This document shows, in pieces, positions 3,906 through 44,598 of a DNA stretch of 64,000 nucleotides. Numbering within the stretch: position 1 is the first letter of the stretch; each line of letters starts with the position of its first letter. Source of the stretch: Candidatus Omnitrophota bacterium. GTDB lineage: Bacteria; Omnitrophota; Gorgyraeia; Zapsychrales; Zapsychraceae. The translations under genes were made by a program, and so were the position numbers. The DNA is taken from contig JADFXT010000003.1 of NCBI GenBank assembly GCA_015233405.1, positions 54,591 to 118,590 on the forward strand, written 5' to 3'. Below the pieces are notes generated by a model, which saw only the letters and a program-made list of their open reading frames with translations, did no database searches and had not been told where the DNA came from.

Positions 3906-4076
3906 TTATTTTTTACCTTTTGTGAGTTTAAGCCCTGTGTTAAGAGCGATCAGCCCGCCGATAAGAAGCGCAAGCGGAACAGATCCACGTAAAAAATCGC
4001 CGAAATTATCCCACCAACCGAAAATCCCGACAACTCCTAAAAGAGCTGCAATTGCTCCTCCAATAACATGTGCCAT
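3906..4076 (-). CDS. MamI-like small two-TM membrane protein (56 aa; below ORF-track cutoff)
   Basis: Hand translation: MAHVIGGAIAALLGVVGIFGWWDNFGDFLRGSVPLALLIGGLIALNTGLKLTKGKK. AAGGAGA lies 6 nt upstream of the ATG at 4076. The G..G...WW....FLRG.VP...L..GGL.AL pattern recalls MamI. Position immediately upstream of the protease mirrors the mamI-mamE order. Confidence 0.55.
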   Translation of the reverse strand: MAHVIGGAIAALLGVVGIFGWWDNFGDFLRGSVPLALLIGGLIALNTGLKLTKGKK

Positions 4077-4102: not shown

Positions 4103-4387
4103 CTAACCGTTTATAAATGTTACCCCGAATCCTCCTCGAGGATTTTCCCAAACAATTGCGCCATCTGTACAAACCACCCGGCAGCTTCCGCACTCAAGAC
4201 AATTTTCATATGAGGCTTCAATGGCGCCGCTTTTCTCTTCGTAGGTCTTCGCCGGACAAACAACAAGACACATCTTGTGCTCGCAGTGCTTACAAACTTT
4301 CTTGTTGATCTTGATATGGCTCGCTGCATCTTTCTTGGTCTTGACCAAAAAAAGCTTGTCATCTAAAGAAAGTTTTCCGGTTTTCAT
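4103..4387 (-). CDS. fixX: ferredoxin-like protein FixX
   Basis: 94 aa. CPAKTYEE...YENCLECGSCRVVC...WENPRGGFGVTF aligns closely with E. coli FixX/YdiT. ATGA overlap with fixC. Confidence 0.85.
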   Translation of the reverse strand: MKTGKLSLDDKLFLVKTKKDAASHIKINKKVCKHCEHKMCLVVCPAKTYEEKSGAIEASYENCLECGSCRVVCTDGAIVWENPRGGFGVTFING

Positions 4388-5697
4388 ATTAAATTACTCC
4401 ACGCGCCCCACATATCGGACGCGACACGGGTCAATTTCACGTTTTTCATGACACGATTAAAAATCTCTTTTTTAACAACGCTTTTGGGCTTTTCGGACAC
4501 ACGGAAATAATCCACCAGAATATCATTCATCAAAGTCGGATAATCGTTGATAAGGGATTTATGTTTATGCAAGAACGACAGAAAATTTTTGCAATTTTTT
4601 AAATCCTGCATGACGAAACTCGCCTTAAGTTTTTCTTCATATTGCGACAGCGCCTCAGCGGTAAAATCGTTCTTCTCCTTCGCCTCGATAATCGTTTCCG
4701 CAGCAGAAAGGCCGGAGGACATCGCCAAATTGACACCTTCATGGAAAAACGACGTATTTAAAAGTCCTGCTGCATCGCCGACGACCAATAGCCCATCCCG
4801 GTAAAGCTTAGGAAGATAATCAAACCCGTCAGACGGGATCATATGCGCCATATATTCGGTGGTTTCTCCTCCGCGCACTAAAGGGGCGATGACCGGATGG
4901 CTCTTAAAATCATCGAGAATATCATTCGGATTCTTTGCATTCTCACTTTTCATAAAATCGCTTAAAGAAAATCCAACGCCAACGGATAAACTGTCTTGGT
5001 TCGTATAAATAAATCCATTTCCCAAAAGCCCTTGGACGGAGGCACCAAAATATTCATAGGCCGCGCCTTGACGGTCCGTTAAGCCGAACCGGTCTTCAAT
5101 AACGCTTCGAGGCAGACGGATGTTTTCCTTGACCGCGATGGAACGACGGCCTGGACTAATTTTCTTACGAAGCCTTGCCTTTTCCGATAACAATGAATTC
5201 GCGCCTTCTGCACAGACAATCACATCAGCCAATAAGCTATCTTCATCTCCACCGCTTGTAATACCGACGACTTTTCCGTTTTCATAAAGAAAATCTCGTA
5301 CGCAGTAATTCGTGATAATGCTCGCGCCAGCCTCTTCTGCCTTCTTGGCCAACCATTGGTCCATCGAGCCACGCCGTGCCAGAAAGGAATGATTATACGG
5401 TGCAACGTTAAATGCCGCAGGCGTTAAATCAAACGCCATTTCGTTTTCATTCGCTAAAAGAGCAAATTTTCTTTTCCCGACGTAACGTTCCCACGGCGCG
5501 TTATCTAAGAAATCTGGGAAAAGTTTTTCCATGATGCTTGAGAAAAATATCCCTCCAAACACATTCTTCGCGCCAGGATATTCGCCGCGCTCAATAACGA
5601 CGACCTCTATCCCGCGTTTAGCCAGAGCATACGCACACGTCAATCCCGAAGGCCCTGCGCCGACAATAATAACTTCCATTTTATCAGTTTGATTCAT
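4384..5697 (-). CDS. fixC: FAD-dependent electron-transfer-flavoprotein:quinone oxidoreductase FixC
   Basis: 437 aa. VIIVGAGPSGL dinucleotide fold. Long colinear similarity to E. coli FixC (GAKNV.GG; LPRSVIEDRF.L...QGAA; GGGF/NGFIYTN; FK.HP..APL; VGDAAG). Confidence 0.9.
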   Translation of the reverse strand: MNQTDKMEVIIVGAGPSGLTCAYALAKRGIEVVVIERGEYPGAKNVFGGIFFSSIMEKLFPDFLDNAPWERYVGKRKFALLANENEMAFDLTPAAFNVAPYNHSFLARRGSMDQWLAKKAEEAGASIITNYCVRDFLYENGKVVGITSGGDEDSLLADVIVCAEGANSLLSEKARLRKKISPGRRSIAVKENIRLPRSVIEDRFGLTDRQGAAYEYFGASVQGLLGNGFIYTNQDSLSVGVGFSLSDFMKSENAKNPNDILDDFKSHPVIAPLVRGGETTEYMAHMIPSDGFDYLPKLYRDGLLVVGDAAGLLNTSFFHEGVNLAMSSGLSAAETIIEAKEKNDFTAEALSQYEEKLKASFVMQDLKNCKNFLSFLHKHKSLINDYPTLMNDILVDYFRVSEKPKSVVKKEIFNRVMKNVKLTRVASDMWGAWSNLI

Positions 5698-6115
5698 GAG
5701 AAAAATTCTCTAACTTGCCCGTTTGTTTGTTTATTTGTTTGTTTGGGAAAAACTTATCTCTGATGAGCGCCGCATACTTTCCGGAAACATATAAACCTTT
5801 TTTCAACGTCTCTGCAATATTCGTTCGACTGCGCCGCAAAATATGAGCGCGGGATTTTGTCGCCGTTTTTAAATGAATAGCCTCATGAACTGGCTCTTTA
5901 TCGTGAAGATTTGCTTCAGTATGATTATTTGATTTTATTTTCTTGAGGAGGTCTAGAACAGCTTCTCGGGGGATACGCTGATGCCCGCCTAATGTAGTGA
6001 CCGCTTTAAGCTTTCCTTGCTTGACCCAACTTAAGACGGTAAAACGGGTAACATGAAGAAGCTCTGCAGCTTGCGACGTTGTTAAAAAATTATGTGAGGA
6101 GGTTGGAGTGTGCAT
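5684..6115 (-). CDS. excisionase/MerR-superfamily helix-turn-helix DNA-binding protein
   Basis: N-terminal LTTSQAAELLHVTRFTVLSWVKQGKLKAVTTLGGHQRIPREAV (HTH_17-like). Paralogous to the N-terminus of the 17494-17952 product. First gene after a sigma70-like promoter. Confidence 0.8.
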   Translation of the reverse strand: MHTPTSSHNFLTTSQAAELLHVTRFTVLSWVKQGKLKAVTTLGGHQRIPREAVLDLLKKIKSNNHTEANLHDKEPVHEAIHLKTATKSRAHILRRSRTNIAETLKKGLYVSGKYAALIRDKFFPNKQINKQTGKLENFSHESN

Positions 6116-6150
6116 TTATTGTTGAAATAAAGATTAATAAAAGTGTTTGG

Positions 6151-6179
6151 ATTATAGGCAATCAACCAAAAAAAGTCAA
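6151..6179 (-). promoter_or_regulatory. sigma70-type promoter (TTGACT-17 nt-TATAAT) for the HTH-fixCX-mamI-like operon
   Basis: Minus strand reads ttgact ttttttggttgattgcc tataat. The -10 element lies ~36 nt upstream of the ATG at 6115. Confidence 0.5.
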
Positions 6180-6293
6180 TAAAAAATATTCGACCGGATT
6201 TTTTATAAAAGAGTGTTGAAAATGTTGAATGATTTCTTACATTTTCTCGTCTGGAAAGGCTTTTCTCGGCAAGAAAAATAAAAAAAGCCTAAA

Positions 6294-7313
6294 TTAATGA
6301 AACCCTGGTGTTTTGTACTGAACAATTTCACCATTTTTGCTTTCAATAACCAGGACTTCAACGCGCTTTAAAGCATGCGCTAAACGCAAGCCTTTTTCAC
6401 CACCTAAAACAGAAATAGCCGTTGATAATTCATTGGCCGCTTGGGTCGTATTGGCTACAACGGTGACACTTACGGCCCCTTTTTGAGGGTAACCGCTAAC
6501 AGGATCTATGATATGCGAGAACGCTTCAGAACCGATAGTATAGAATTTTTCATAATTGCCGGAAGTTGATATGCCCCTATCACTTAGAACTGTGGTGCAA
6601 TATAATTTCTCCTTGTTAAAAGGGTCCTGAACCCCTATGATCCAAGGTTTTTTCCCCTGATCTTTTCCTCTGCAAAATATCTCACCTCCGCCATCAACCA
6701 GAAAATGTTTGATCCTGTTTTTATCAAGTATTTTTGCAAGTTCATCGCAAACGAATCCTGAAGCAGGAGAACCAAGATCCACTTTCATTCCCGGTTTTTT
6801 AAAAGAAATAAAATCCGGAGCCTTAAGGCATAAATTCCGATAACCAACTTTATCTTTTGTTTTTTCTAATAAATCTTTATCCGGAAGTTTTCCTTGATCC
6901 GCAGATTTTTTCCATAATTCTACAAGCGGCAATGCAGTGATGTCATATGCGCCATTTGTCAGTTTAGAATATTCAATGGATTCTTTGATCACTTTAAACA
7001 CATCAGCCGTAACGCGCACCCCTTGAAATCCATCCGCATTTAATCTGCTTAGATCCCCTTCCATATTTTTTGAATGCGCATTCATGTGCAATTGAACTTC
7101 CTCAACTTTTTTCCAGCATTGATTAATAACCGATATAACATTTATCTTTGGGTCATAAAAAAAATGAATGCGCACATAAGCCCCTAAATAAGGCCTTGTT
7201 TCATCGTAATCCAAAAGTTTTTGTTTCTTAAAAGACGATCGAATTAGAAAGAAGAATGCACCGAGGATGATTAACAAAAAAATGTTGAGAATGTTGATAT
7301 GATTTGGGTTCAC
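6294..7313 (-). CDS. apbE: ApbE-family FAD:protein FMN transferase with N-terminal signal anchor
   Basis: 339 aa, ApbE-like throughout (YDITALPLVELW; DLGSPASGFVCDELAKIL; GGGEIFCRG; ISTSGNYEKF; HIIDPVSGYP). N-terminal TM (ILNIFLLIILGAFFFLI). Confidence 0.85.
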   Translation of the reverse strand: MNPNHINILNIFLLIILGAFFFLIRSSFKKQKLLDYDETRPYLGAYVRIHFFYDPKINVISVINQCWKKVEEVQLHMNAHSKNMEGDLSRLNADGFQGVRVTADVFKVIKESIEYSKLTNGAYDITALPLVELWKKSADQGKLPDKDLLEKTKDKVGYRNLCLKAPDFISFKKPGMKVDLGSPASGFVCDELAKILDKNRIKHFLVDGGGEIFCRGKDQGKKPWIIGVQDPFNKEKLYCTTVLSDRGISTSGNYEKFYTIGSEAFSHIIDPVSGYPQKGAVSVTVVANTTQAANELSTAISVLGGEKGLRLAHALKRVEVLVIESKNGEIVQYKTPGFH

Positions 7314-7347: not shown

Positions 7348-8130
7348 CTATAGAAACCTGAGGTATTTACGGCAAAGCCCAGTGAGAAACAGTGGAATAA
7401 TAAAAATACCAACAAATTCTTCTAGAATAGCAACAATTTTGTTGAATCCGATTGGAATTATGTCTCCATAACCAATGTGCGTGAAGGTAATTAAGCTAAA
7501 ATAAATGGATTCAAATAAATTCGGTTTGTGAGCAACCGAACTAACAAGAAAATGGCCCTGGGTATACAATAAAGCGGTCAATAAAATTAATGAACAGGCA
7601 AAAATAACTGTTCGCTGCGGGCGCTCTCCGTGGCCCCATAGGATGGAAGATATCGATAATAAAACCCAAGAGATAAAAAGCTTCATCCGTCCTTTAAGAT
7701 CAAATCCTTGATGATTCTTTCCGACATGATGAAGTCGTTTGGCATAAAATAAATGCGGCATCAGAGACTTTCGATAACATTCTTTGGAAAGAAAAAAGCA
7801 TTCTGAAAAACTGACATATTCCAGGTCGCGCTCATAACAAATCCCTGCATTTTTGTAAAGAATGCTCGCGTATTCATAATCGCCGGAGATGACCGCTTCT
7901 TCAGCGGCTTTTTCATAATACATCGACGCATAATAGAACAATGTCTGCCTGCCGCCTTGAAATTCACAGCAGCTCGCCGCGGAAGTAAAACAGATTGTTG
8001 CTTGTTTATGCTGTCCCTGGCTTTGATAAGACATGGCCGCTTGCAAAAAAAGCTTCGAAGCTTCCTCATATTTTTGAGCTTCAAAAAGCTTCTGCGCTTC
8101 TTGTTCTATATTTTTAATATCGTCGGCCAT
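7348..8130 (-). CDS. two-TM K+-channel-like protein with N-terminal TPR/SNAP-like helical-repeat domain
   Basis: Selectivity-filter-like SLITFTHIGYGD between two TM helices. The N-terminal ~115 aa are helical repeats (AQKYEEASKLFLQAAMSY..YYEKAAEEA..ASILYKNAGICY). The start overlaps the STAS stop (TAATG). Confidence 0.75.
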   Translation of the reverse strand: MADDIKNIEQEAQKLFEAQKYEEASKLFLQAAMSYQSQGQHKQATICFTSAASCCEFQGGRQTLFYYASMYYEKAAEEAVISGDYEYASILYKNAGICYERDLEYVSFSECFFLSKECYRKSLMPHLFYAKRLHHVGKNHQGFDLKGRMKLFISWVLLSISSILWGHGERPQRTVIFACSLILLTALLYTQGHFLVSSVAHKPNLFESIYFSLITFTHIGYGDIIPIGFNKIVAILEEFVGIFIIPLFLTGLCRKYLRFL

Positions 8131-8468
8131 TATGTTCCTAAATCTTTCATTGCCATTTCCCGATGTTCATAAATCGGGATCAATTTGTGGATCTTTGTGA
8201 TTTCAAACAGCCCCTTTACGTCTTTATTAACATTACAGATCGCCAGTTTTCCGCCGGATTTCTTAAGCATTTGCATCATTTCTATGAGTGTCGCAAGCCC
8301 GGCGCTGCAGACAAACGTCACCTTTTCAAAATCAACCAGGACTTTGGTCGAGCCTTCTTTCAACATTTTTAGAAATGATTCGCGTAGCGCGATGGAGTTG
8401 TCCACGCTCAATTCCCCATCCATGGTCACTACAGTAATGCCGCTTATTTTCTCAACCAGTATTTTCAT
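8130..8468 (-). CDS. STAS-domain anti-sigma-factor antagonist (SpoIIAA/RsbV-like)
   Basis: 112 aa, typical STAS layout (LVDFEKVTFVCSAGLATLIEM) with a candidate phospho-Ser. Confidence 0.85.
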   Translation of the reverse strand: MKILVEKISGITVVTMDGELSVDNSIALRESFLKMLKEGSTKVLVDFEKVTFVCSAGLATLIEMMQMLKKSGGKLAICNVNKDVKGLFEITKIHKLIPIYEHREMAMKDLGT

Positions 8469-8480
8469 TTTCAGCCTCCC

Positions 8481-8882
8481 TTATTGCTTCAAAAATTTAG
8501 TCATCTTTATTGTCCGGCCCTCATTGGCGAACTCTAATTTATCCATGACATTTTTTATAAGAAATATCCCTCTGCCGCTTAACTTTTCTAAATTTTCCGT
8601 TTTGACAGGGTCAGGAATCTTTTGATAATCAAAGCCTTTGCCTTGATCCGTCACTTGAATGGTTAGTTGATTCTCGTCAGATGTAATCTCAACCTGCACC
8701 GATAAACGCGGGTCCATTTTATTGCCATGTTTAACGGCATTGACAATCGCTTCATATAACACGAGCTTAATATTAAAAATAGTGCTTTGGTCCAAAGCCA
8801 ATGGAGACAGTTTCTCCAGAATTGAAGAAACAAATCCGTTTATAGGCGCAACTTGCGAAGGTATGGTCTCAAATATATGCAT
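8481..8882 (-). CDS. anti-sigma regulatory factor / Ser-Thr kinase (RsbW/SpoIIAB-like, HATPase_c)
   Basis: 133 aa with EAIVNAVKHGN (N-box), DQGKGFD (G1) and GRGIFLIKNVMD (G2). Confidence 0.85.
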   Translation of the reverse strand: MHIFETIPSQVAPINGFVSSILEKLSPLALDQSTIFNIKLVLYEAIVNAVKHGNKMDPRLSVQVEITSDENQLTIQVTDQGKGFDYQKIPDPVKTENLEKLSGRGIFLIKNVMDKLEFANEGRTIKMTKFLKQ

Positions 8883-8943
8883 AAAGGTTGCAGTAAATTA
8901 TCAAAAAAACTCCGACGCGTCAAATAAAAATATCCCTTACCCT

Positions 8944-10887
8944 TTAAATAATCTTAACAACAATAAAAGTGATATCATCCGACTGCTTATGTTGCGGCTC
9001 AAATTTCCGGACATCTTTTTCAATCGAGGACAACAATCCTCTTGCGGGGAAATTCCGGTCTTTTTCAATTGTAGAAATCAGCCGTTCCTTGCCATACATT
9101 TGGCCCTTGGCGTTTCTCGCTTCTGTGATCCCGTCGGTATAAAAAACAAAAATGTCGCCGGAAGAAAATGCGATCTGTCCGCCGGAGTAAGTGCTTTCGA
9201 GCATCCCTAAGGGGTATCCGTCTTCCACATCCAAAGCTTTAGCGGAAGCGCCCTTGGGCAAATATAAAACCGGCAGATGCCCGCCGTTGGCGTACGTCAT
9301 GATCTTTTTATCCATGTCGAATATGGAATAATAAAGCGTGACAAATAATCCTGTCGGAGAGTCCTGGGTTAATTTTAAGTTTAAATTGTGAAGCGCCTCA
9401 TGCGGCTTGGTTTCGGACAAAGCGAAAAATTTAAACGCGCCCGAAACCGTGGTCATAAAAAGGCTGGCCGGCATGCCTTTTCCGGAAACGTCGCCGATCA
9501 TGACGCCAAGCCGTTTAGGGCTGAATTCATAAAAATCATACAAATCCCCGCCGACCTCACGGGCCGTATACATGATGGCGGCGATATCAAGCCCGGCGGT
9601 CATAGGAAGCGTTTTAGGAAGGAAACTCTCCTGGATCTTCTTGGCAATTTTCATTTCATTCTCGACGAGGATTTTCTTCTTCCACTCGCGGATGGAGATC
9701 ATCAGCGTTGAAAGCAAATAAAGCGCCACCAACGCAAAGAACGGATAAAACATATCCACCCAAATTCCGAATAAAATGAACAATAAAATCGCCAAGACGC
9801 TATAGGAAAAAATCGTGCCGGCTAATATCAAAAAACTCTTAAATGGCTTGGTGGCAAATACGCCCCAGACGATCAACGCGCCTAATAAAAACAAAATGAC
9901 CTGGTTGGTTTGCTTTGAGGCGCGGACGATAAATTGTTTATTCAATATAGAATTAATAATGTCGCTGTGCACCGCAAGCGCCGGATAAAGCGCGGAGAAC
10001 GGGTTAGGATGCAGGTCTGCCGTGCCGGCGGCGGTGAGTCCTACAATGCAAATTTTGTCCTTAAAAACATTTAAATCCAGCGTCGGCTTTTCTCCTTTTT
10101 TTAAAGAAACATAAGACTGCAAAATATCCACAAAAGAATAATGTTTATAATATCTGCCCCAATCGCCGGCATAATTCACGATCACATTTGAATTTTCATC
10201 CACCGGGATCCGCATCTTGCGGCCCAATTGAATATAGCGACCAGGATAAAGCTTTAGATCTTTAGCAGATAACCCCAAATAAGCAGAGATTAAACGAAGC
10301 GAAAGATATGGATGAAGCGTGTTTCCATATTCAACCAAAAGCGGAACGCGCCGATATTTTCCGTCGGGGTCTGGGATGACATTAATATGCCCGATACCTG
10401 CAGCCACTTGCCTGAAATTTTCTAACGTTTGGGCCGTATAACCCTTTGCCTCGATGACCTTTTGTTTTGGCGTATTGTCCAGATCAAAAACATATGGCAA
10501 ATAAACATTACCCGTGGTCTTGATCGCCTGTTCCAATTCTGGGTCGCCATTGCCTTTCTCCGAGAAGAAAATATCCATCAAAACGGCTTTGGCGCCATAT
10601 TCAGACAAAGCCTTGATCAAAACAGCATGATACCCTCTGTCAAAAGGGAATCGCCCTAATTTGGCGATAGAATCTTCACCAATTTCAACAATTACAACTT
10701 TATCAGATGTGAATACGAACGGACGGAGATGAAAACGAAAGTCTAATGCGCCAAGCTCACTATTTTCAAAAATGCGAGCATGGGAACCGCACAAAAGAAT
10801 GGCAGCAAAGGCGAGAAAGATAAGGACCAACAAAACGTTTTGAAACGCAACGGCCAGCAAATCAAGAATTTTTTTCAGATTGACCAT
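8944..10887 (-). CDS. CHASE2 sensor domain / PP2C (SpoIIE-type) serine phosphatase
   Basis: 647 aa. N-terminal TM plus CHASE2-like region (VVIVEIGEDSIAKLGRFPFDRGYHAVLIKAL..DIFFSE). Three to four TM helices. C-terminal SpoIIE/PP2C region (IQESFLP, GGDLYDF, GDVSGKGMPASLFM, YTDGITEA). Confidence 0.9.
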   Translation of the reverse strand: MVNLKKILDLLAVAFQNVLLVLIFLAFAAILLCGSHARIFENSELGALDFRFHLRPFVFTSDKVVIVEIGEDSIAKLGRFPFDRGYHAVLIKALSEYGAKAVLMDIFFSEKGNGDPELEQAIKTTGNVYLPYVFDLDNTPKQKVIEAKGYTAQTLENFRQVAAGIGHINVIPDPDGKYRRVPLLVEYGNTLHPYLSLRLISAYLGLSAKDLKLYPGRYIQLGRKMRIPVDENSNVIVNYAGDWGRYYKHYSFVDILQSYVSLKKGEKPTLDLNVFKDKICIVGLTAAGTADLHPNPFSALYPALAVHSDIINSILNKQFIVRASKQTNQVILFLLGALIVWGVFATKPFKSFLILAGTIFSYSVLAILLFILFGIWVDMFYPFFALVALYLLSTLMISIREWKKKILVENEMKIAKKIQESFLPKTLPMTAGLDIAAIMYTAREVGGDLYDFYEFSPKRLGVMIGDVSGKGMPASLFMTTVSGAFKFFALSETKPHEALHNLNLKLTQDSPTGLFVTLYYSIFDMDKKIMTYANGGHLPVLYLPKGASAKALDVEDGYPLGMLESTYSGGQIAFSSGDIFVFYTDGITEARNAKGQMYGKERLISTIEKDRNFPARGLLSSIEKDVRKFEPQHKQSDDITFIVVKII

Positions 10888-10954
10888 GATAAAAAATTAG
10901 TCCTTTTCTTGTTTTGCCAATTATAACATTTCTTTTATAAAAGAACAGAATATT

Positions 10955-11890
10955 CTACAGGCGCAAATCCTTCTCTCTGGAATAAACCGAACATTTCTTG
11001 CATTTATTGATCTTCTCTTCAGCCGTACCCTGCATTTGTCCATCGCACCAGGTGTAATCCACATCCCAGCATTTGACCCCATGATTGGGAAACGCAGGGC
11101 ATTGAACCTGACGCTCCGCCGGACAATTTAAGATGTCCCAGCAAGAAGACTTTAAAAGATTTTTACAATAATCCTGTAAATCATTCGTCCGCTTTTTCAT
11201 TCCGTTTATCAAGCGGTCCCAGTTTTCTTTATTTTCCAACTCCTTAGAGAATGGCCTTTTCTCGATACCTTCCAGAAAACTCTCGACACTCCAGCAATAA
11301 TTTTTTAAGGTGTCTAAAAGACGATTTATTCGTAAGGTCACCTCTTCATCCGGCATTGCATCTCTCCAGACCTCAAATCCCCCCAGCACCCTTCCTCGTT
11401 TATCAATGAGCGGACCAGCTGTAACAATGATCGTATGCTCGCGATCGAATTTGTCCTGAACCTTGACCCTTTTACCAATGACGGACTTCTGCGTCGTCAT
11501 AGCTTGTTTAATAGCACAATTTTTCTCGCACAAATCGCTATTAAACACTCTCATACACTTGACTTTTCCTATGGCATCATTTAATTTCAAGCCTGTAAAA
11601 TCAAGGCAAGCCGGATTCATATATTGGATCTTCATGTTTTTATCCACGACGAAGAACGGATAACTTGAGGCCCGCAAGATGCTAGCAGCGAAAGAAGACA
11701 TCTCTTCAAACTCATCAAAGACTTTTGCCTTGGAAGATAAAAATTCCAGAAAATTATTATGCTCCCCACTTTTAGGCTCAGCTTTCTTTTGAGAAAACCG
11801 CGTCTTTTCAGAATCTTTTTTATCGACGGGATCCGGAACATTTTTCAAATCTTCAATGACTTGTACCATCCGATAGAAATTCATTGCCAT
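10955..11890 (-). CDS. PAS-domain protein with C-terminal Cys-rich module containing two CW dipeptides
   Basis: PAS-like core (FFVVDKNMKIQYMNPACLDFTG...TAGPLIDKRGRVLGGFEVWRD). C-terminus CWDILNCPAERQVQCPAFPNHGVKCWDVDYTWCDG...CKKCSVY. Confidence 0.75.
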   Translation of the reverse strand: MAMNFYRMVQVIEDLKNVPDPVDKKDSEKTRFSQKKAEPKSGEHNNFLEFLSSKAKVFDEFEEMSSFAASILRASSYPFFVVDKNMKIQYMNPACLDFTGLKLNDAIGKVKCMRVFNSDLCEKNCAIKQAMTTQKSVIGKRVKVQDKFDREHTIIVTAGPLIDKRGRVLGGFEVWRDAMPDEEVTLRINRLLDTLKNYCWSVESFLEGIEKRPFSKELENKENWDRLINGMKKRTNDLQDYCKNLLKSSCWDILNCPAERQVQCPAFPNHGVKCWDVDYTWCDGQMQGTAEEKINKCKKCSVYSREKDLRL

Positions 11891-11944
11891 TATGGCCTCC
11901 TTATATTAAAAAACGCTATTTTGTCATCCCCACTCTATATTGCT

Positions 11945-12021
11945 GTCATTTCCGAAATCTTTTATCGGGAATCCATGTTTTAAACCCTTGTGGATCCCCG
12001 ACTAATGCATTCGGGGATGAC
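11945..12021. repeat. palindromic MITE/REP-like element, subfamily B (77 bp)
   Basis: gtcatttccgaaatcttttatcgggaatcc ... ggatccccgactaatgcattcggggatgac: two hairpins with terminal inverted GTCAT/ATGAC. Near-identical architecture at 40098-40182. Confidence 0.85.
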
Positions 12022-12042
12022 AGCGGTTAGAGCTTGTTGAGA

Positions 12043-12948
12043 TTACGCTGGCTCAAAAAAGAAATCAACTTCACCGATGGACGGAAGATTACGAATAACC
12101 GACTTCTTCATATCGTCCATGGCCACACAGACTTCCTGAAGAGTACCCGTCTTGGGACAGCGAAGACTGATGCCGACCCAAAATTTCTTGCCCACTCTCT
12201 TAAACTTGATACTCCCTGGTCGATATTTAGGATAAGCGGACAGGATCATCTTTTCTATGCGAAGCGCGAACCCCGGTTCAGGAACCTGGTCCAGGATGTT
12301 TCGCACATTAGAAGCCCAATGACTCAAAGAATCTTTAACAATGACCACACCGACGATGAGAGCTGCTAACCGGTCGCAGACGGCAAAATCAGCCCCCATC
12401 TGAGATAAAATGATCCCTAAAATCACGGCACTTGAAGAAAGGACATCTGCTCCGGCGTGACAACCGTTTGCAATCAGTCCAGAGCTATCTAACCTTTTGC
12501 CGGCGCAAAAATTATACCGTTGGATCATATAGGTCAGAAAGACCGACGCTACGGCAACGGGGAGCGCCAACACAATATCCGGTTGGACAAAATCACGTCT
12601 AAGAATGGCCAGAATGCTCGAAAGCGTAATAGAAACGCCAAACCCGATCAAGATACTAAACGCGATAAGCGCGACGATAAATTCAAGTTTCGCATAACCA
12701 TACGGAAATCGAACATCATTCGGCCGACTGGAAAATGACAAGCTCACCATAATGAGAATGCTCGTCACAACACAAGCGATGGATTGAATTCCGTCGGCGA
12801 TCATCCCGGAACTGTTGGCGAACGTTCCACCGGCAAGTTTTATTACGACCAAAACAGCATTGCCGATGACTGTCCAGACGAGGATTTTCTTTGAACACGC
12901 CCAACAGCCTTCTGTCGTCATACAGGAATTTGCATTTTTTGAAATCAT
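12043..12948 (-). CDS. cation diffusion facilitator transporter, MamB-like (N-terminal CxxC)
   Basis: 301 aa with CDF topology. N-terminal CWAC parallels the CxxC of MamB. TM2 ADGIQSIACV. TM5 NGCHAGADV (HxxxD retained). PYGYAKLEF loop. C-terminal cytoplasmic domain. Confidence 0.8.
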   Translation of the reverse strand: MISKNANSCMTTEGCWACSKKILVWTVIGNAVLVVIKLAGGTFANSSGMIADGIQSIACVVTSILIMVSLSFSSRPNDVRFPYGYAKLEFIVALIAFSILIGFGVSITLSSILAILRRDFVQPDIVLALPVAVASVFLTYMIQRYNFCAGKRLDSSGLIANGCHAGADVLSSSAVILGIILSQMGADFAVCDRLAALIVGVVIVKDSLSHWASNVRNILDQVPEPGFALRIEKMILSAYPKYRPGSIKFKRVGKKFWVGISLRCPKTGTLQEVCVAMDDMKKSVIRNLPSIGEVDFFFEPA

Positions 12949-13835
12949 ATTTTTTCTTCCAGCCTAATACCAATGAACACTTCATGGGGGCTTAAAAATT
13001 TTACCTTTACCGCTCTTTTGATGTTCTCTGCGATAGCAAAAACGTCCACCATGGGAATGTCTTTTGCCGTCGACAGATCAGCGATAATTTCGTAGATGTG
13101 GCCGATCTTGTTAACGCGTAACGCCTTTAACGACGCTTCACCTATCTGTGCTTTACGGATACAACTTTCGACCTCGGAAACAGTTTTCTTATCGCACGAG
13201 GCATCCATCAGCCCTATAAAGGCTTTATATAAAAATAAAACACTGTAGGCGATGATAAAGAACGCCGCAAAAATAGCGCATCCATAATCAACAATGTAAG
13301 ACCCCATCCTCGATATTACGACGGTAAGGATGGTCAAGACCGAAAGCAGGAAATCTGTATCCAGAATAAAGATAATATCCTTCGATTCGTCTTCTTCCTG
13401 AATATTGGTTATCTCGGCCTTGATTCTTACCATAAACACTAAACTGATCGTAGCAGCGATCGCCGCAACCCACGCAGCCAGAAATTCTGGCGGATAAAGC
13501 GTGTGAAAGAAAATCATATGGCCTAAAGAAAAAAGAAGGGCGCTGGTGCTTAAGGCGATAACTGACGATATCGCCAAAAGGATCATGAATTCAAGCTTGC
13601 CCCGGTTAAAATATGGCGATAGCCGTCGGGAAGAATGCGTTATACCGATGCGCATCAAGGTGGCAATGGCTATCAAGATACCAAAAATCGCGAAGATGCC
13701 GGATACCAATAAACATTTTGAGCCCGTGATGACGCCTAAAACAGTCTTAAACAAAAAAGATGTTATAAAAAAATATAATAAGGCATAGGTGATCCGCTCT
13801 TTCTTTTCTTTAAGGAAATCTGGTTTCTTTTTCAT
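12945..13835 (-). CDS. cation diffusion facilitator paralogue with degenerate transport-site residues (MamM-like partner?)
   Basis: CDF-like layout (NRGKLEFMILLA loop, C-terminal domain). TM2 reads LVSGIFAIFG, lacking the D/H pair. The ATG at 13835 is preferred over the track GTG at 13859 because it lies 2 nt after the upstream stop. ATGA-type 4-nt overlap with the downstream CDF gene. Confidence 0.75.
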   Translation of the reverse strand: MKKKPDFLKEKKERITYALLYFFITSFLFKTVLGVITGSKCLLVSGIFAIFGILIAIATLMRIGITHSSRRLSPYFNRGKLEFMILLAISSVIALSTSALLFSLGHMIFFHTLYPPEFLAAWVAAIAATISLVFMVRIKAEITNIQEEDESKDIIFILDTDFLLSVLTILTVVISRMGSYIVDYGCAIFAAFFIIAYSVLFLYKAFIGLMDASCDKKTVSEVESCIRKAQIGEASLKALRVNKIGHIYEIIADLSTAKDIPMVDVFAIAENIKRAVKVKFLSPHEVFIGIRLEEKI

Positions 13836-13837
13836 CG

Positions 13838-14680
13838 TTATCCCTGGATTACATGGCACTTAGAACAAATCCCTCGATATTCATGCGGCGCCTGCGCATT
13901 TGCCGGTATCGCTGGGACATTAGGGGTCATAATCACATGACAATTTTCACAGACGCCGCGAAATTCATGCATCATAATTGCATCACGCAAAATGGCCGGC
14001 GCCTTTGTTTGTCCCGGGATTGGCTTCGTTAAAGCAACCGTCCGCGCTCCAGGGAATACACATCCATTTCTGCCCGTATACGCAATCTGCTGGCCAGCAC
14101 CGCCCGTCGTGGCAGGAGGAAAACATTGGGTAACCGTCGGACATGTCATACAACCCGGCGGAATATACGCCGCTTGTTGACCGGCCTGCGCCTGCCACTG
14201 ATTAAAAATTTGCGTTCCCGTTGGACAATTGGGTTGAAAGGCTATTTGTTGTCCACCACCCGTTGCCGGAGGAAAACATTGGGCAACATTGGGACACACC
14301 GCACAATTCGGTGGAACATACGCAGCCTGTTGTGCAGCGCCTGTTCCTTGAGGAAAACATTGTGTGACCGTTGGGCACGTCATACAACCCGGCGGAATAT
14401 ACGCCACTTGCTGCGGCATGGACTGCCACTGATTAAAGTCTTGAGCAGCGGTTGGATAATTCTGCTGAAACGCGACCTGCTGAGAGCCTCCCGTGGCAAT
14501 AATCCCTTGCTGGGCAGGATCTTGAACGGGCACCGGTTTGGGCCGCATATTAAAAAGCGCAAAGCAGAAAAATGACGTGAGCCCGACGACAGTAAGCCCT
14601 ATCATCCATAAACTTTTGGCATTGATATTCGCGCAGGAATCGTCTGCGAAAAATATCTCTTCTTTTTTATCGTTCTTCAT
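13838..14680 (-). CDS. TM-anchored double-magnetochrome (2x CXXCH) protein with Q-rich CxxC..C repeat region
   Basis: 280 aa. N-terminal TM (LWMIGLTVVGLTSFFCFALF). Repeats of PPGCMTCPTVTQCFP type. C-terminal MHEFRGVCENCHVI and PHEYRGICSKCHVI. Confidence 0.85.
   Translation of the reverse strand: MKNDKKEEIFFADDSCANINAKSLWMIGLTVVGLTSFFCFALFNMRPKPVPVQDPAQQGIIATGGSQQVAFQQNYPTAAQDFNQWQSMPQQVAYIPPGCMTCPTVTQCFPQGTGAAQQAAYVPPNCAVCPNVAQCFPPATGGGQQIAFQPNCPTGTQIFNQWQAQAGQQAAYIPPGCMTCPTVTQCFPPATTGGAGQQIAYTGRNGCVFPGARTVALTKPIPGQTKAPAILRDAIMMHEFRGVCENCHVIMTPNVPAIPANAQAPHEYRGICSKCHVIQG
13841..13972 (-). other. two tandem magnetochrome-type heme-c motifs
   Basis: H-E-F-R-G-V-C-E-N-C-H and P-H-E-Y-R-G-I-C-S-K-C-H, about 28 residues apart. 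Confidence 0.75.
14078..14482 (-). repeat. in-frame ~234-nt (78-aa) super-repeat inside the double-CXXCH gene
   Basis: QQVAFQQNYPTAAQDFNQWQ..QQVAYIPPGCMTCPTVTQCFP versus QQIAFQPNCPTGTQIFNQWQ..QQAAYIPPGCMTCPTVTQCFP. DNA blocks near 14117-14180 and 14351-14414 are nearly identical. Confidence 0.8.
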
Positions 14681-14774
14681 GAAAAACCCCTTTCATTTTA
14701 ATCCCTCCGTCCCCCTTATACTGATGGGGGAGGTTATATATTGTCACAATCCAAGGAACACAATTGTTTTGCCT

Positions 14775-14897
14775 GTCATCCTCAACTTCCTCGATGTTGT
14801 ATCTAGAAATGATTGGGGATCCATTAAATGCTTTTAGGTCCTAAGCCCCTACAGGAGGACACCTTCTGGATCCCCGCCTAAAGATTGCGGGGATGAC
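14775..14897. repeat. palindromic MITE/REP-like element, subfamily A (123 bp, left arm degenerate)
   Basis: Starts gtcatcctc, contains the core ggggatccattaaatgcttttaggtcc, and ends ggatccccgcctaaagattgcggggatgac. The right arm is nearly identical to that of 36178-36283. Confidence 0.8.
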
Positions 14898-14989
14898 AGA
14901 AAAAGATCAAGGATAAGACCTATAATTTTCATCATTTCCACAAAAACGGGAATCCACTCTTTAAAAAATAAAAATCATATAACCAGACA

Positions 14990-15436
14990 CTATATTCCGC
15001 CGGGACGGGTTCCTACCGTCGTATAAATAATGACCGATTCTCCTTGCCGGTCGATCGTAATTTTAACACGCTCATTTGTATTGGATGTCTGGATAAGCCG
15101 CTCCAGTTGTTCCGGGCTGGTTACACTGGTCCCGTTCCACCTTCGGATGACATCCCCTTCATGAATTTTGGACGCTTGCGCCGGCGAGCCGACAAAAACT
15201 CTCGAAACCAATAAGCCGTTCGATGACTGAATATCAAATTGCTTTTTGATATCCGTCGTAAGCTCAACCGTTTCCATGCCCAGCCAAAGCCGCGAATCCG
15301 CAGGCTTGAGCAGCATGGTCGGCAACTTTATAAAAAGCACAATCACCGTAATGGCCGTTAAAAGGATCATAAAAAGGACCGCGTTGACCGCGTCATCATT
15401 TTTTCTCTTAATGGCCACCTTTGTTTTTATCATCAT
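14990..15436 (-). CDS. TM-anchored single-PDZ-domain protein
   Basis: 148 aa. N-terminal TM (AVLFMILLTAITVIVLFI) followed by PDZ (LWLGMETVELTTDIKKQFDIQSSNGLLVSRVFVGSPAQASKIHEGDVIRRWNG). 4-nt overlap with the NapH-like gene. Confidence 0.8.
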   Translation of the reverse strand: MMIKTKVAIKRKNDDAVNAVLFMILLTAITVIVLFIKLPTMLLKPADSRLWLGMETVELTTDIKKQFDIQSSNGLLVSRVFVGSPAQASKIHEGDVIRRWNGTSVTSPEQLERLIQTSNTNERVKITIDRQGESVIIYTTVGTRPGGI

Positions 15437-16281
15437 TGCCCCTGATTATTCGTTGTCGCTGTTGCCCCAAGGCCAACCTTGACATTTTCACATTTCAAAC
15501 ACTTAAAACATCTCACACACGTCGACGCGCCAGGGTCATCACTAATGTTGATATCCACCGGACAGACCTCTCTACATTTTTGGCAATCTTTGCAATCGCG
15601 CGGGTCCACTTTTAGTTGAAGAATGCTGTGTCTATTAAAGAATCCAAATATCGCACCGAGCGGGCAGGCTAGACGGCAAAATGGCCTTTTGGCGATAATG
15701 AAAAGCGCGATAAAAGAAAATGCGATAAGGATCTTGATGATAAATAATAACCCTAAAGTCGAAAGAGACACAGCCGGCTCGCCGTAGACCGGAATGATCG
15801 GATTCCAAACGACCCAAGGAATCGCGGCTTGAAGCGTCCCCATAGGGCACACCTTCGAGAACCAAGTCTCTTGCGTGATTAACGGGAACAAAATAACGAG
15901 AAAAATCAGGATCAGATATCGTAAGGCTGATAACTTTTGTGGAAGACGGATCTTTACACTCTTTATTTTATAAAAAAGATCCTGGATAAGCCCAAACGGG
16001 CACAACCAACCGCATGCCAAAGAACCCACCATAATTCCGGTGGTCGCAAGATATGCCGTCAAAAGATACGGGAACTTACGGATGGTCATAAAATGTTGAA
16101 ATGTTCCAATAGGGCAGGAAAGAAATGCCGACGGACAACTATGGCAATTCAACCCCGGGATGCACACACTTTTTAGCGAGCCCTGATAAACCTGTTTGGT
16201 CCTTAAAAAACCGAAATACGCATTTGTTAAGACGAGCGAACACCACTGTGCTGTCGTGCGTATACTCTGTAGCAAATCCAT
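15433..16281 (-). CDS. NapH/MauN/NosH-like integral-membrane polyferredoxin (putative quinol-linked electron transfer)
   Basis: 282 aa. CX3CP motifs (CGWLCP, CRLACP) plus CHSCPSAFLSCP between TM helices. C-terminal 2x[4Fe-4S]-type CKDCQKCREVCP and CVRCFKCLKC. Confidence 0.8.
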   Translation of the reverse strand: MDLLQSIRTTAQWCSLVLTNAYFGFLRTKQVYQGSLKSVCIPGLNCHSCPSAFLSCPIGTFQHFMTIRKFPYLLTAYLATTGIMVGSLACGWLCPFGLIQDLFYKIKSVKIRLPQKLSALRYLILIFLVILFPLITQETWFSKVCPMGTLQAAIPWVVWNPIIPVYGEPAVSLSTLGLLFIIKILIAFSFIALFIIAKRPFCRLACPLGAIFGFFNRHSILQLKVDPRDCKDCQKCREVCPVDINISDDPGASTCVRCFKCLKCENVKVGLGATATTNNQGQ

Positions 16282-16284
16282 CCG

Positions 16285-16419
16285 TTACTCCAATCCAATA
16301 CAGGCCATGCACATGGTGGCCCCGTTGTTTTGTGTCTCGAGAGGTTCGTTGTTATTGTCTCCGATAAGGAAAAAAATAAACGCCAAAAAGAAGACGACAA
16401 TCACGACTATCTTTTTCAT
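16285..16419 (-). CDS. possible 44-aa exported/membrane peptide with C-terminal CMAC (below ORF-track cutoff)
   Basis: Hand translation: MKKIVVIVVFFLAFIFFLIGDNNNEPLETQNNGATMCMACIGLE. The stop lies 4 nt before the NapH-like ATG. No homology claim is made. Confidence 0.3.
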   Translation of the reverse strand: MKKIVVIVVFFLAFIFFLIGDNNNEPLETQNNGATMCMACIGLE

Positions 16420-16439
16420 AATCAAACATCCTTCCAGAT

Positions 16440-16790
16440 TTACTGGCTTTCAATCCATGTCATATATGTTCGACACCGCGGGCATTGTGGAAATCCGCTA
16501 TATCCGCAGGCCGGACAAACAAAGGCGCCCCGATATCCGTTCCAATACATGGAAACCTGGCACGTCGGGCATAAAGGAACTCCTTTTGCACCGCACTTGG
16601 GACAAACACTGAACACATTATGTTCAATCACCTTCATGACGACATTATTGGAAACAAGGGAACGCGCCTGGACTGTTTTAAATTTCGAAACCGAATACAT
16701 GGCATACCCGGACAAAAAAATGGCAAAAGCCACCACCATGATAAGTAGGCGATTTCTGTCCTGATCATTTAAGATAATACTGTCTTCCAT
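16440..16790 (-). CDS. TM-anchored double zinc-ribbon protein
   Basis: 116 aa. TM (LLIMVVAFAIFLSGYAMY) followed by CPKCGAKGVPLCPTCQVSMYW and CPACGYSGFPQCPRCRTYMTW. The ribbon style matches that of the 3-1577 product. Confidence 0.65.
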   Translation of the reverse strand: MEDSIILNDQDRNRLLIMVVAFAIFLSGYAMYSVSKFKTVQARSLVSNNVVMKVIEHNVFSVCPKCGAKGVPLCPTCQVSMYWNGYRGAFVCPACGYSGFPQCPRCRTYMTWIESQ

Positions 16791-16792
16791 GC

Positions 16793-17497
16793 TTACAACA
16801 CCTTCACTTTGGGTTTTACAGCGGCACTATTAAGCGGCGCAGTCACGGCGGTTACCTCATGCATAACGCCACCACACTTAGGGCATTGCGTGGGAACAAT
16901 AGCTCCGGCACTTTTTTCCGAAACGCGGTAACTGCAATCAAAGCACATATAATATTTTCCCTGGACTATCCGCCCGACGTTGGCTTGGGCATCAAAGGAG
17001 TTACAGGCCACCGGCGTTTTACTTCCGGTAATGCCGAAATGCGACGGAACGTTTTGTTCGGTAAGTTTGGTCAGGCCGTCGGGAAAATCATTGAGCGCCT
17101 GCCACACGGTCCCTTTTAAATCCGTATAAACTTCAATACGCGCCTGGCTAAAAACTCTAAAAGGTTCAAATCCAACATTGTTGCCGAGAACAGCGTCGAC
17201 GTTTAAACCCGCGATCATTTGAGCGGAACGTAACCCAGCGGCATGCTGGGCGTCCATAAATTTATTCGGTACGGCCTTATACGTTCTTTTGGCACGGTCA
17301 CAGATAATATAAAACGGCGCCCTGCCGAACAGGTAGGAAACCGGGCTTGAAATGTCTTTCCCCGTCGATGCGATCGCGATGATCACGGCCTTTTTACCGG
17401 TCAAAACCAATGGATTATTCTTTTCATAAAGCGCGCGCCCAATGACAAGGCCGACCGCCACAATCAAAACGATGAGGAATATCGTTTCTTTTTTCAT
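16793..17497 (-). CDS. membrane-anchored NifX/NifB-C-like domain protein with C-terminal zinc ribbon
   Basis: 234 aa. N-terminal TM. Good NifX-family pattern (AVIIAIASTGKDISSPVSYLFGRAPFYIICD...GLNVDAVLGNNVGFEPFRVFSQARIEVY). C-terminal CFDCSYRV...CPKCGGVM. Confidence 0.8.
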   Translation of the reverse strand: MKKETIFLIVLIVAVGLVIGRALYEKNNPLVLTGKKAVIIAIASTGKDISSPVSYLFGRAPFYIICDRAKRTYKAVPNKFMDAQHAAGLRSAQMIAGLNVDAVLGNNVGFEPFRVFSQARIEVYTDLKGTVWQALNDFPDGLTKLTEQNVPSHFGITGSKTPVACNSFDAQANVGRIVQGKYYMCFDCSYRVSEKSAGAIVPTQCPKCGGVMHEVTAVTAPLNSAAVKPKVKVL

Positions 17498-17952
17498 TGG
17501 GGATTACTCTTCTGCTTCGTTTTATTTTTCGTAGAAACAGCTTCGCCATCCTGGTCAAAATGGATTTTCTTGTAATACTCGCAGGATAAACAAGAAGTCT
17601 TACAGAAGATCTTTTGGTGGGCGACGTGTTCACGGATCGTGTAACACTTTTTGGTATCGGACAGAAAGACGACACAGAGTTTGCAGTTATGAACTCCATT
17701 ATTCTTCACCGGTTGATGAAATTCCCAACAGCGTAAAAAATCTGCATTTTCTATAAACTTCTCCGACTTAATTGCGTTGAGGCCGATTTTATACGTTTTA
17801 ATAAAAGCAACGAGGTCCGCACGGTGAATGCGCCGGTGGCCGCCCGGGGTCTTGGTGCTTTTTAAAATCCCTTTTTTCGTCCAATTGATGATAGAGAATC
17901 TTGTTACGTTGCAAAGCTTGGAAATCTCTACGGTTGAATAATATTCCTTCAT
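17494..17952 (-). CDS. excisionase/MerR-superfamily HTH DNA-binding protein with Cys-rich C-terminal module
   Basis: YSTVEISKLCNVTRFSIINWTKKGILKSTKTPGGHRRIHRADLV (HTH_17-like) followed by CWEF..CKLC..C..CKTSCLSCEYY. AGGAGG RBS. 4-nt overlap with the downstream NifX-like gene. Confidence 0.8.
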   Translation of the reverse strand: MKEYYSTVEISKLCNVTRFSIINWTKKGILKSTKTPGGHRRIHRADLVAFIKTYKIGLNAIKSEKFIENADFLRCWEFHQPVKNNGVHNCKLCVVFLSDTKKCYTIREHVAHQKIFCKTSCLSCEYYKKIHFDQDGEAVSTKNKTKQKSNPQ

Positions 17953-18881: not shown

Positions 18882-18888
18882 CGGTTGT

Positions 18889-20656: not shown

Positions 20657-20658
20657 CT

Positions 20659-22492: not shown

Positions 22493-22506
22493 TCTCCTTT
22501 ATGCTT

Positions 22507-23274: not shown

Positions 23275-23278
23275 TGGT

Positions 23279-42898: not shown

Positions 42899-43339
42899 TT
42901 ATATCGCATAAGCAATCACTTTTTGTTCAGCATCAAGCTGCAAAGCCAATTGTTCAAAATTTATATTGTCAATAATATCCGATGTCGCTTGTGAAACGTC
43001 CTGCCAGATTTTCCTAAAAACACACTTATAAACATCGCCGCACTGAGAATATCCCTCTTTAACGCAAGCAATCGGTTCTGTCGGTCCATCGACAAACCGG
43101 ACAACATCGCCTACAGTGATCTCGGCTGGCGACCTTGCCAATAAATATCCGCCAACATTCCCGCGCCGGCTTTCCACAAATCCACCTCTCTTTAATTCCA
43201 AGAGCACCTGCTCTAAAAATTTAATCGGGGCATCAATATGCGTGGCGATATCATTGATGGTCAAAAGCCCTTGGTTATAATTCTTTGCTAAATCTAATAC
43301 AGCCTTAAGCGCGTAATCACCTTTATACGTAATCTTCAT
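42899..43339 (-). CDS. Rrf2-family transcriptional regulator (CymR/IscR-like)
   Basis: MKITYKGDYALKAVLDLA...INDIATHIDAPIKFLEQVLLELKRGGFVESRRGNVGGY. Confidence 0.9.
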   Translation of the reverse strand: MKITYKGDYALKAVLDLAKNYNQGLLTINDIATHIDAPIKFLEQVLLELKRGGFVESRRGNVGGYLLARSPAEITVGDVVRFVDGPTEPIACVKEGYSQCGDVYKCVFRKIWQDVSQATSDIIDNINFEQLALQLDAEQKVIAYAI

Positions 43340-44578: not shown

Positions 44579-44598
44579 TTCTCCAGAAAAATTCCCAG

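Follow-up and report, generated by a model that had tools for sequence, protein, structure and literature searches.

In canonical partner-switching systems, the gene for the sigma factor lies in the same operon as the genes of the switch. The three protein types that make up the Bacillus systems RsbU/RsbV/RsbW-sigmaB and SpoIIE/SpoIIAA/SpoIIAB-sigmaF are also encoded, by adjacent genes, on a 64 kb stretch of contig JADFXT010000003.1 from a Candidatus Omnitrophota bacterium (the window), namely as a phosphatase with a CHASE2 sensor (CHASE2-PP2C), an RsbW/SpoIIAB-like kinase and a STAS protein. These three genes, here called the triad, are flanked by a magnetosome gene cluster (MGC), and a preliminary description of the window had read them, together with the neighbouring gene for a PAS protein with a Cys-rich two-CW domain (PAS/two-CW), as one complete cascade dedicated to the surrounding biomineralisation genes. 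Comparison with related loci (L001-L094) leads us to a different reading, to which we assign a probability of roughly 0.55: the triad would be an ancestral module found throughout Omnitrophota, encoded at loci without a sigma factor gene, older than the MGC and not specific to it, and its output would be a membrane transport protein, with a TPR/channel protein encoded next to STAS as the leading candidate in the window.

Partner switching with outputs other than a sigma factor is known from SypE/SypA in Vibrio, HenR with a STAS protein acting on a glycosyltransferase in Anabaena, BtrU/V/W in Bordetella and HsbR/HsbA in Pseudomonas (PMC8256260, PMC13555669, PMC10120452). The triad would resemble these systems in the switching of a STAS protein by phosphorylation for an output beyond a dedicated sigma factor, but it is linked to Mla or K+-channel-type genes and receives its input through CHASE2. 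In the literature searched, no link of partner switching to Mla or to a K+-channel-type protein was found. Chlamydia, a member of the PVC group like Omnitrophota, has an RsbU with a membrane-anchored periplasmic sensor and is not known to have a dedicated sigmaB. Its Rsb system is described as consisting of the sensor phosphatase RsbU, the kinase RsbW and the anti-anti-sigma STAS proteins RsbV1 and RsbV2 (PMC11619594). Compared by shared domains, this system and the triad are alike in their phosphatase-kinase-STAS make-up, whereas the sensor domain is not CHASE2 and the gene neighbourhoods differ.

A second point of reference is the Escherichia coli lipid transport protein MlaB, a STAS protein that is required for MlaF association and that carries Thr52 at the position of the SpoIIAA phospho-site, within the MlaF interface. 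The T52E substitution weakens binding, and phospho-regulation has been proposed but was called an open question, with no kinase known (PMC7367683).

The phosphatase, kinase and STAS genes

The four genes of the preliminary description were all found as successive open reading frames (ORFs) on the minus strand, and their domains, including the C-terminal two-CW module of the PAS protein, were confirmed with Pfam and NCBIfam at significance levels that chance would not produce:

10955-11890, minus strand: PAS domain, helical hairpin and two-CW Cys-rich domain, 311 aa (PAS 7e-8; NF045718 43.1 bits, cutoff 35)
8944-10887, minus strand: CHASE2 extracytoplasmic sensor, 3 transmembrane (TM) helices and SpoIIE/PP2C Ser phosphatase, 647 aa, the putative input component (CHASE2 1e-55; SpoIIE PF07228 6.9e-46)
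8481-8882, minus strand: RsbW/SpoIIAB-like Ser kinase, 133 aa (PF13581 HATPase_c_2 E=2.7e-27)
8130-8468, minus strand: single-domain STAS protein, 112 aa, with the predicted phospho-site Ser55 (PF01740 E=7.6e-22)

The STAS protein belongs to the NCBIfam anti-sigma-factor-antagonist superfamily (75 bits, cutoff 53) and spans the full length of SpoIIAA up to the C-terminus of the latter (~111 aa). Its FVCSAGL motif, in which a candidate phospho-Ser had been noticed before, matches FMDSSGL of SpoIIAA column for column, and Ser55 is predicted to be the phospho-site because it aligns with the phosphorylated Ser of SpoIIAA (1th8_B, 3.6e-10). This Ser is kept in 18 of 18 aligned orthologues. The Asp that precedes it is replaced by Cys in the window and by Gly in the other members of the clade from magnetotactic bacteria (MTB).

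In the kinase, the N-box (E44/N48/H52-G-N), the G1 box (D79-x-G-x-G) and the G2 box (G103-x-G) are intact; they are kept in 16 orthologues representing both gene arrangements described below and align with the motifs of RsbW 6m36_A. Matches in the PDB include RsbW (1e-9) and SpoIIAB (4e-8), and the top match is 9qih_A, 'SenB' (E=4.7e-15), a name that left no trace in the literature searched. The kinase scores below the NCBIfam equivalog cutoffs of both RsbW (NF003144, 62.6 vs 145 bits) and SpoIIAB (TIGR01925, 55.6 vs 135 bits), and the STAS protein likewise falls below that of SpoIIAA. The metal-binding Asp residues of the PP2C domain (D448, D451, D466, D585 and D637/D638) are unchanged across 12 homologues. 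Taken together, these motifs indicate a phosphatase, kinase and STAS set that is apparently complete and catalytically competent and that, judged by its three protein types, is a genuine RsbU/RsbW/RsbV-type partner-switching triad. The partner-switching module described earlier therefore stands for these three genes, whereas one complete cascade of four genes is an interpretation placed on them: the PAS/two-CW gene is not part of the same unit and belongs to a magnetosome operon.

The triad thus shares with the two Bacillus systems the three protein types, the position of the phospho-Ser and intact ATP- and metal-binding motifs. It differs from them in the membrane CHASE2 sensor of its phosphatase, in the sub-cutoff equivalog scores of its kinase and STAS protein, in conserved neighbours that are membrane transport proteins, and in the lack of a sigma factor gene in its operon, in the window or at related loci. 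Agreeing with the preliminary description, a Pfam scan of every non-overlapping ORF of at least 100 aa in the window (64 kb of a 186 kb contig) found no Sigma70-family domain, and the Pfam-annotated 7-10 kb flanks of eight loci (L001-L004, L090-L092 and L094) also hold no sigma factor. A promoter and terminator scan detected no convincing terminator between the genes, the terminator-like matches falling inside coding regions, and found weak -10-like motifs only, located in the gaps between the PAS/two-CW and PP2C genes and between the PP2C and kinase genes.

Type I and type II loci

At E<1e-20, CHASE2-PP2C has 1393 homologues, nearly all of them from Omnitrophota and matching over the full length with 50-64% identity. 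The genes of the triad occur in two arrangements, which we call type I (kinase-STAS-MlaE-MlaF-MlaD-(0-2 genes)-PP2C) and type II (PP2C-kinase-STAS-TPR/channel). Type I was found in at least eight loci (L006, L007, L008, L011, L031, L040, L091 and L092), and that of L008 sits on CP070655.1, a complete Omnitrophota chromosome of 1.14 Mb. L005-L011, L031, L040 and the cross-phylum loci linked to Mla come from among listed matches that include generic PP2C motifs and under-sample Omnitrophota. In L091 and L092 the intergenic gaps measure -4 to 51 nt, and the neighbouring genes are AccA, MnmE, FolE, LeuRS, ComEC, LptE and HolA. No homologue of the MamE, CDF, magnetochrome, Fer4_5 or NifB-like proteins of the window was detected within 10 kb of the type I loci.

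The type I STAS protein is similar to E. coli MlaB in being a small STAS protein encoded in an Mla operon, its gene lying directly upstream of MlaE, with the kinase gene before it and the phosphatase gene after MlaD. Unlike the minimal MlaB fold, which lacks the C-terminal strand and helix, the Omnitrophota STAS protein is SpoIIAA-like over its full length of ~111 aa, and in the window its gene is located ~13 kb from MlaE. A classification of the STAS protein as MlaB-like by sequence was considered and rejected, as it is SpoIIAA-like and the MlaB model scores far below its cutoff.

Type II is present in the window and in L001-L004, L090 and L094. All of these except L094 belong to the MTB lineage (n=6), and the closest relatives of the window are metagenome-assembled genomes (MAGs) with GCA_0152… accessions, apparently part of the collection of MTB genomes published by Lin et al. 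2020, a study that covers 20 Omnitrophota MTB genomes (PMC7602337). L094 comes from the non-magnetotactic Omnitrophota MAG GCA_947085705.1, in which the kinase and the STAS protein form a single ORF of 248 aa (9234-9995) with no stop codon in between; this natural fusion supports a direct interaction of the two proteins. The neighbours of the L094 unit are a MazE/PIN pair, cold-shock proteins, RpoZ, IF-1 and Lon, and neither mam nor Mla genes occur within 7 kb upstream and 10 kb downstream of it. Furthermore, 17 contigs, including contigs of only 3.5-8 kb, are common to the homologue tables of PP2C and of the TPR/channel protein when paired by equal size, and these equal sizes indicate that the four-gene type II unit is common.

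In neighbour-joining (NJ) trees and identity matrices, the type II versions of all three triad proteins each form a single clade within Omnitrophota, and the MGC-free L094 is the first to branch off. In the PP2C tree, type II nests inside type I. From type I to type II, identity drops from 61 to 40% for the kinase and from 65 to 34% for STAS, but only from 62 to 54% for PP2C and from 70 to 58% for MlaE/F; the type I STAS proteins are 56-76% identical among themselves. Since the MTB members retain MlaEFD-PstSCAB directly upstream of PP2C, the PP2C proteins of the two types appear to be orthologues, and it is the kinase and STAS genes that would have moved. For the loci compared, the view that the two types are unrelated paralogues was rejected, given this position of MlaEFD in the MTB clade and the nesting of type II within the type I PP2C tree.

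The triad is accordingly not restricted to MGCs, with L091, L092, six further type I loci and L094 all being without nearby mam homologues. This speaks against a cascade dedicated to the surrounding biomineralisation genes: in relatives, orthologues of the triad form a conserved module beside unrelated genes, either within an Mla operon or together with the TPR/channel gene, and have housekeeping neighbours but no mam genes in the 7-10 kb covered on each side.

In other phyla, STAS directly upstream of MlaE recurs in different gene orders in L064, L074 (Auribacterota), L049 and L066 (Nitrospirota), and the MAGs concerned include one labelled Cytophagia. The adjoining PP2C is here of a non-CHASE2 type, and a kinase is present in some. 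As STAS, MlaE and PP2C recur together in these four loci, partner switching is linked to Mla beyond Omnitrophota as well.

Directly upstream of PP2C, L094 carries a rotamase-like, a HAMP and an unknown gene (5266-7174). Homologues of the three (26-35% identity) are found in the same order in the window at 48342-50434, ~38 kb from the module, and may be the remnant of an older linkage or paralogues.

The magnetosome operons and the PAS/two-CW gene

Upstream of the triad, the window contains two transporter loci and a magnetosome operon:

21767-24076, minus strand: MlaD, MlaF and MlaE of a lipid ABC transporter (MlaE above cutoff, with 245 bits for TIGR00056; MlaF and MlaD top matches, under the equivalog cutoffs)
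18120-21621, minus strand: PstSCAB-type phosphate ABC transporter (Pfam; PstB TIGR00972 338 bits, cutoff 343; PstS-family match below cutoff)
12043-17952, minus strand: magnetosome operon between PstB and the PP2C gene, with HTH_17, Nitro_FeMo-Co (NifB-like), Zn-ribbon, Fer4_5, PDZ, magnetochrome, CDF and CDF genes (Pfam)

Read from high to low coordinates, the minus strand carries a lone response regulator, MlaE-MlaF-MlaD, PstSCAB, the magnetosome operon with PAS/two-CW as its ninth and terminal gene, CHASE2-PP2C, the kinase and STAS. These are followed by the TPR/channel gene (TPR/Ion_trans_2), ApbE, HTH_17, a FixC-like and a FixX-like gene, a MamI-like ORF, a MamE-like gene, PDZ and magnetochrome. 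The flanking magnetosome-type genes encode magnetochrome proteins, a MamE-like Trypsin-PDZ protease, two CDF transporters and a Fer4_5 protein.

PstSCAB is kept between MlaD and the PP2C side in L001-L004 and L090. L002-L004 have the order MlaEFD-PstSCAB-PP2C-kinase-STAS-channel-ApbE-HTH_17-HTH_17-MamI…MamE…MamB, and L090 is similar. The triad in L002-L004 is thus at the edge of the MGC, the magnetosome operon between PstB and PP2C being missing there; only in the window do magnetosome genes lie on both sides of the triad. The interval from PstB to PP2C holds nothing in L002-L004, Fur-FeoAAB-OprB in L001, HK-ArsP-Fer4_5-methyltransferase in L090 and the nine-gene magnetosome operon in the window, and these varying contents give it the appearance of a hot spot for insertions. 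Most simply, the triad locus would have been there first and the MGC would have built up next to it, enclosing it in the genome of the window. The adjacency of triad and MGC at the MTB loci is equally well explained by a single ancestral MGC insertion and shared ancestry.

The link to magnetosome genes suggested for all four genes in the preliminary description does hold for PAS/two-CW, which is found in the MGC operon of the window and of L085 and L086, although not for the triad. The nine-gene order is identical in L085 and L086, where PAS/two-CW starts 14-23 nt past the second CDF gene and is followed by unrelated genes rather than by PP2C. In L086, which is one part of a single contig of which L001 is the other, the magnetosome operon and the triad lie more than 20 kb apart. 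Conversely, a PAS/two-CW homologue is missing from every triad locus other than the window. PAS/two-CW is therefore separable from the triad and linked to MGCs. The gap between CDF and PAS/two-CW in the window (11891-12042) measures 152 nt, compared to 14-23 nt in L085 and L086, and holds a 7-bp inverted repeat (TCCCCGA…TCGGGGA); it may be regulatory or the scar of a rearrangement.

Just 63 homologues of PAS/two-CW are detectable, from Omnitrophica, Syntrophales, Riflebacteria and Planctomycetota. The gene lies 3 kb upstream of MamI/MamE in L087, which comes from an MTB MAG of Riflebacteria, and in Syntrophales L093 it lies beside a CDF::NifB-like fusion, with no mam genes visible in the 16.6 kb contig; in both it comes after a gene for a PAS-sigma54 activator. 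The family has 11 invariant Cys residues, four in the PAS core (C95, C112, C121 and C125) and seven in the two-CW module (C250, C256, C264, C274, C282, C297 and C300), the latter with the conserved CW motifs C250-W251 and C274-W275. AlphaFold2 (AF2) models the PAS core and the helical hairpin with confidence, while the two-CW module has a pLDDT of 40-55, and the protein has no recognisable output domain. Its 11 invariant Cys residues point to a metal or Fe-S cofactor, so that PAS/two-CW is probably a separate metal- or Fe-S-based sensor and a candidate redox sensor of deep-branching magnetosome clusters. Compared to the mad/mam genes of deep-branching MTB (mamAB-like cluster, mad1-9), PAS/two-CW shares an operon in three Omnitrophota genomes with genes of the CDF (MamB/M-like), magnetochrome, Fer4_5 and NifB-like types; the triad is also found at loci with no mam homologue within 7-10 kb. 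In the MGC literature examined PAS/two-CW bears no mam, mad or man name, and STAS, PP2C or two-CW genes are not mentioned in that literature.

Several further features of the MGC region were observed. HTH_17 (MerR/excisionase-type) genes at 17494-17952 and 5684-6115 lead both magnetosome operons of the window, and they also lead the corresponding operons in L085, L086, L002, L003 and L090. Between the channel gene and the MamI-like ORF (3906-4076) lie ApbE (6294-7313), a FixC-like gene (4384-5697) and a FixX-like ferredoxin gene (4103-4387). The same ApbE/FixCX-like gene order is found in L090 (FixC 84% identity), and these ApbE and ETF-QO/FixCX-like flavin and electron-transfer genes seem to be part of the Omnitrophota MGC. 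Elsewhere in the window, a second iron-related block (42899-47723) comprises Fur (47286-47723), an apparently split FeoB (45794-47242 and 45302-45772), a DtxR/FeoA-type regulator (44599-45363), an ArsP permease (43449-44408) and an Rrf2 regulator (42899-43339). In L001, two Volactin/actin-like genes and a response regulator (13583-15773) are located between STAS and the TPR/channel gene; the former may be relatives of the actins of the Mad28/MamK type known from deep-branching MTB.

Output of the triad and competing explanations

The gene that follows STAS in the type II arrangement is the most immediate candidate for an output:

7348-8130, minus strand: TPR/SNAP-like N-terminal domain and 2-TM K+-channel-type pore, 260 aa (Ion_trans_2 PF07885 1.9e-12)

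In the window its ATG overlaps the stop codon of STAS (TAATG), and in L094 it begins 2 nt after the fused kinase::STAS gene. It is located downstream of STAS in L002-L004 and L090 as well, and four genes away from it in L001. In the AF2 model (pLDDT 85), six TPR/SNAP-like helices lead through a basic disordered linker to a K+-channel-type pore, and Foldseek returned separate TPR/SNAP and Kv pore matches only, all with E>1e-3. The motif WGHGERPxR, on the probable cytoplasmic side before TM1, is invariant in the family, and the filter sequence TTVGYGD is found in 12 of 36 to about half of its members. Of the candidate targets in this window we lean towards the TPR/channel protein, though at less than even odds; the Mla transporter and an unlinked sigma factor would be the alternatives.

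From the domains and gene orders we infer a signal flow in which CHASE2 would sense an extracytoplasmic or envelope signal and thereby control the cytoplasmic PP2C domain. PP2C would remove the phosphate that the RsbW-like kinase places on Ser55 of STAS, and the phosphorylation state of STAS would determine whether its partner is the kinase or another protein. The output would then be the post-translational control of a membrane transport protein instead of a sigma factor. In most Omnitrophota, where the genes of the module bracket MlaEFD, STAS would have a phospho-regulated MlaB-like role. In the sublineage of the window, the kinase and STAS genes would have shifted downstream of PP2C and become coupled to the TPR/K+-channel-type gene, with magnetosome genes inserted later on both sides of the pre-existing triad locus and PAS/two-CW arriving with the inserted magnetosome operon. 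A bolder form of this reading, which we consider possible but rather unlikely, is that in Omnitrophota and some Nitrospirota and Auribacterota an RsbU/W/V-type switch regulates transport post-translationally, with an ancestral MlaB-like STAS toggling MlaFED that was rewired here to a TPR/K+-channel-type protein at the edge of the MGC.

Several observations weigh against an ancestral, transport-directed module. The triad is beside or near the MGC in six of the six MTB-lineage loci sampled, which leaves room for co-option, and the absence of mam genes in relatives refers to flanks of 7-10 kb. The phylogeny of types I and II is derived from NJ trees on short protein alignments (PP2C, kinase and STAS). 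The functional assignments draw on synteny and homology, and the output target on synteny; STAS scores 21-33 bits with the MlaB model NF033618 (28.5 in the window, 32-33 for type I) against a cutoff of 90, and since it is not MlaB-like in sequence, the link to Mla is one of synteny. Other genes intervene between STAS and the channel gene in L001, L002 and L090. In addition, the filter reads THIGYGD in the window, with His in place of the Thr of the consensus TVGYGD (T-x-T-H-IGYGD in the MTB clade), and degenerate filters such as VGAES, VGTEN and VGPDS are found in some family members, so that ion conduction is not certain and the conserved function of the family may be other than K+ conduction. 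Finally, the side of the membrane that holds the TPR domain hinges on the topology of helix 145-168; judging from the basic linker (mean net charge +3.8), it is probably the cytoplasmic side.

These points bear on three other explanations. The triad, with or without PAS/two-CW, may have been co-opted in MTB Omnitrophota as a dedicated magnetosome regulator, for example acting through HTH_17 or magnetosome-membrane proteins. It adjoins the MGC in the window, L002-L004 and L090 and shares a contig with MGC operons in L001/L086; the genes all run in one direction, separated by short gaps that hold no convincing terminator, and the strong divergence of kinase and STAS from type I, as well as the exchange of Asp for Gly or Cys before the phospho-Ser in the MTB clade, are compatible with a new partner. 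We nevertheless regard co-option as improbable, as the same four-gene type II unit occurs without an MGC in L094, orthologues are linked to Mla in non-MGC contexts, PAS/two-CW and the triad lie apart in L085 and L086, the variable PstB-PP2C interval resembles an insertion hot spot and the adjacency can be explained by common descent from one insertion. The low scores of the kinase against the RsbW and SpoIIAB equivalog models, together with the lack of a sigma factor gene in the window or the annotated flanks of eight related loci, where canonical systems have it in the operon, argue against a classical anti-sigma system, in which the kinase would sequester an alternative sigma factor encoded elsewhere and the Mla, channel and magnetosome genes would be merely co-located or co-regulated. 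Moreover, the placement of Mla genes between components of the module in at least eight loci and the adjacency of STAS and MlaE in other phyla are hard to explain without functional coupling. Such a system is thus unlikely, even though kinase and STAS find their best matches in RsbW/SpoIIAB and SpoIIAA/RsbV (PDB, NCBIfam), the sigma search covers 64 kb of the 186 kb contig, and an Rsb-type system with a target sigma factor is described for Chlamydia (PMC11619594).

The module could also still regulate MlaFED, ~13 kb upstream in the window, with STAS as a phosphorylatable MlaB analogue and the TPR/channel gene as a passenger. This would account for the upstream, same-strand position that MlaEFD keeps in the window and L002-L004, where no other STAS gene lies beside MlaE, and it would parallel E. 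coli, in which MlaF association requires MlaB and is weakened by a phosphomimetic T52E substitution (PMC7367683). It is less easily reconciled with L094, which lacks Mla genes in the 7 kb upstream and 10 kb downstream, with the sharp change of STAS from type I to type II despite the mutual similarity of type I STAS proteins, with the tight coupling of STAS to the channel gene and with the lack of MlaB-like sequence features, and we give it little weight. An ancestral module directed at membrane transport remains our preferred explanation.

Where magnetosomes are concerned, the result is chiefly a correction. What looked like a cascade encoded by the cluster is a juxtaposition, and for this reason experiments are needed before the triad is quoted as a regulator of the MGC. 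Regulation specific to the cluster is more plausibly sought in PAS/two-CW, whose 11-Cys sensor protein is tied to magnetosome clusters, and in the HTH_17 genes that head the operons. Beyond the MGC, the type II unit suggests an ion-channel-type protein as a previously undescribed class of partner-switching output. For envelope biology, the recurrent kinase-STAS-MlaEFD-PP2C operon offers evidence from genomes that Mla may be controlled by a phospho-regulated STAS protein, and a concrete system for the question of STAS-subunit phospho-regulation raised by the structural work on MlaFB. If the rewiring from MlaFED to a channel-type protein proposed above is true, the triad would contain the kinase and the phosphatase that have been missing from the phospho-regulation long proposed for STAS proteins of the MlaB type.

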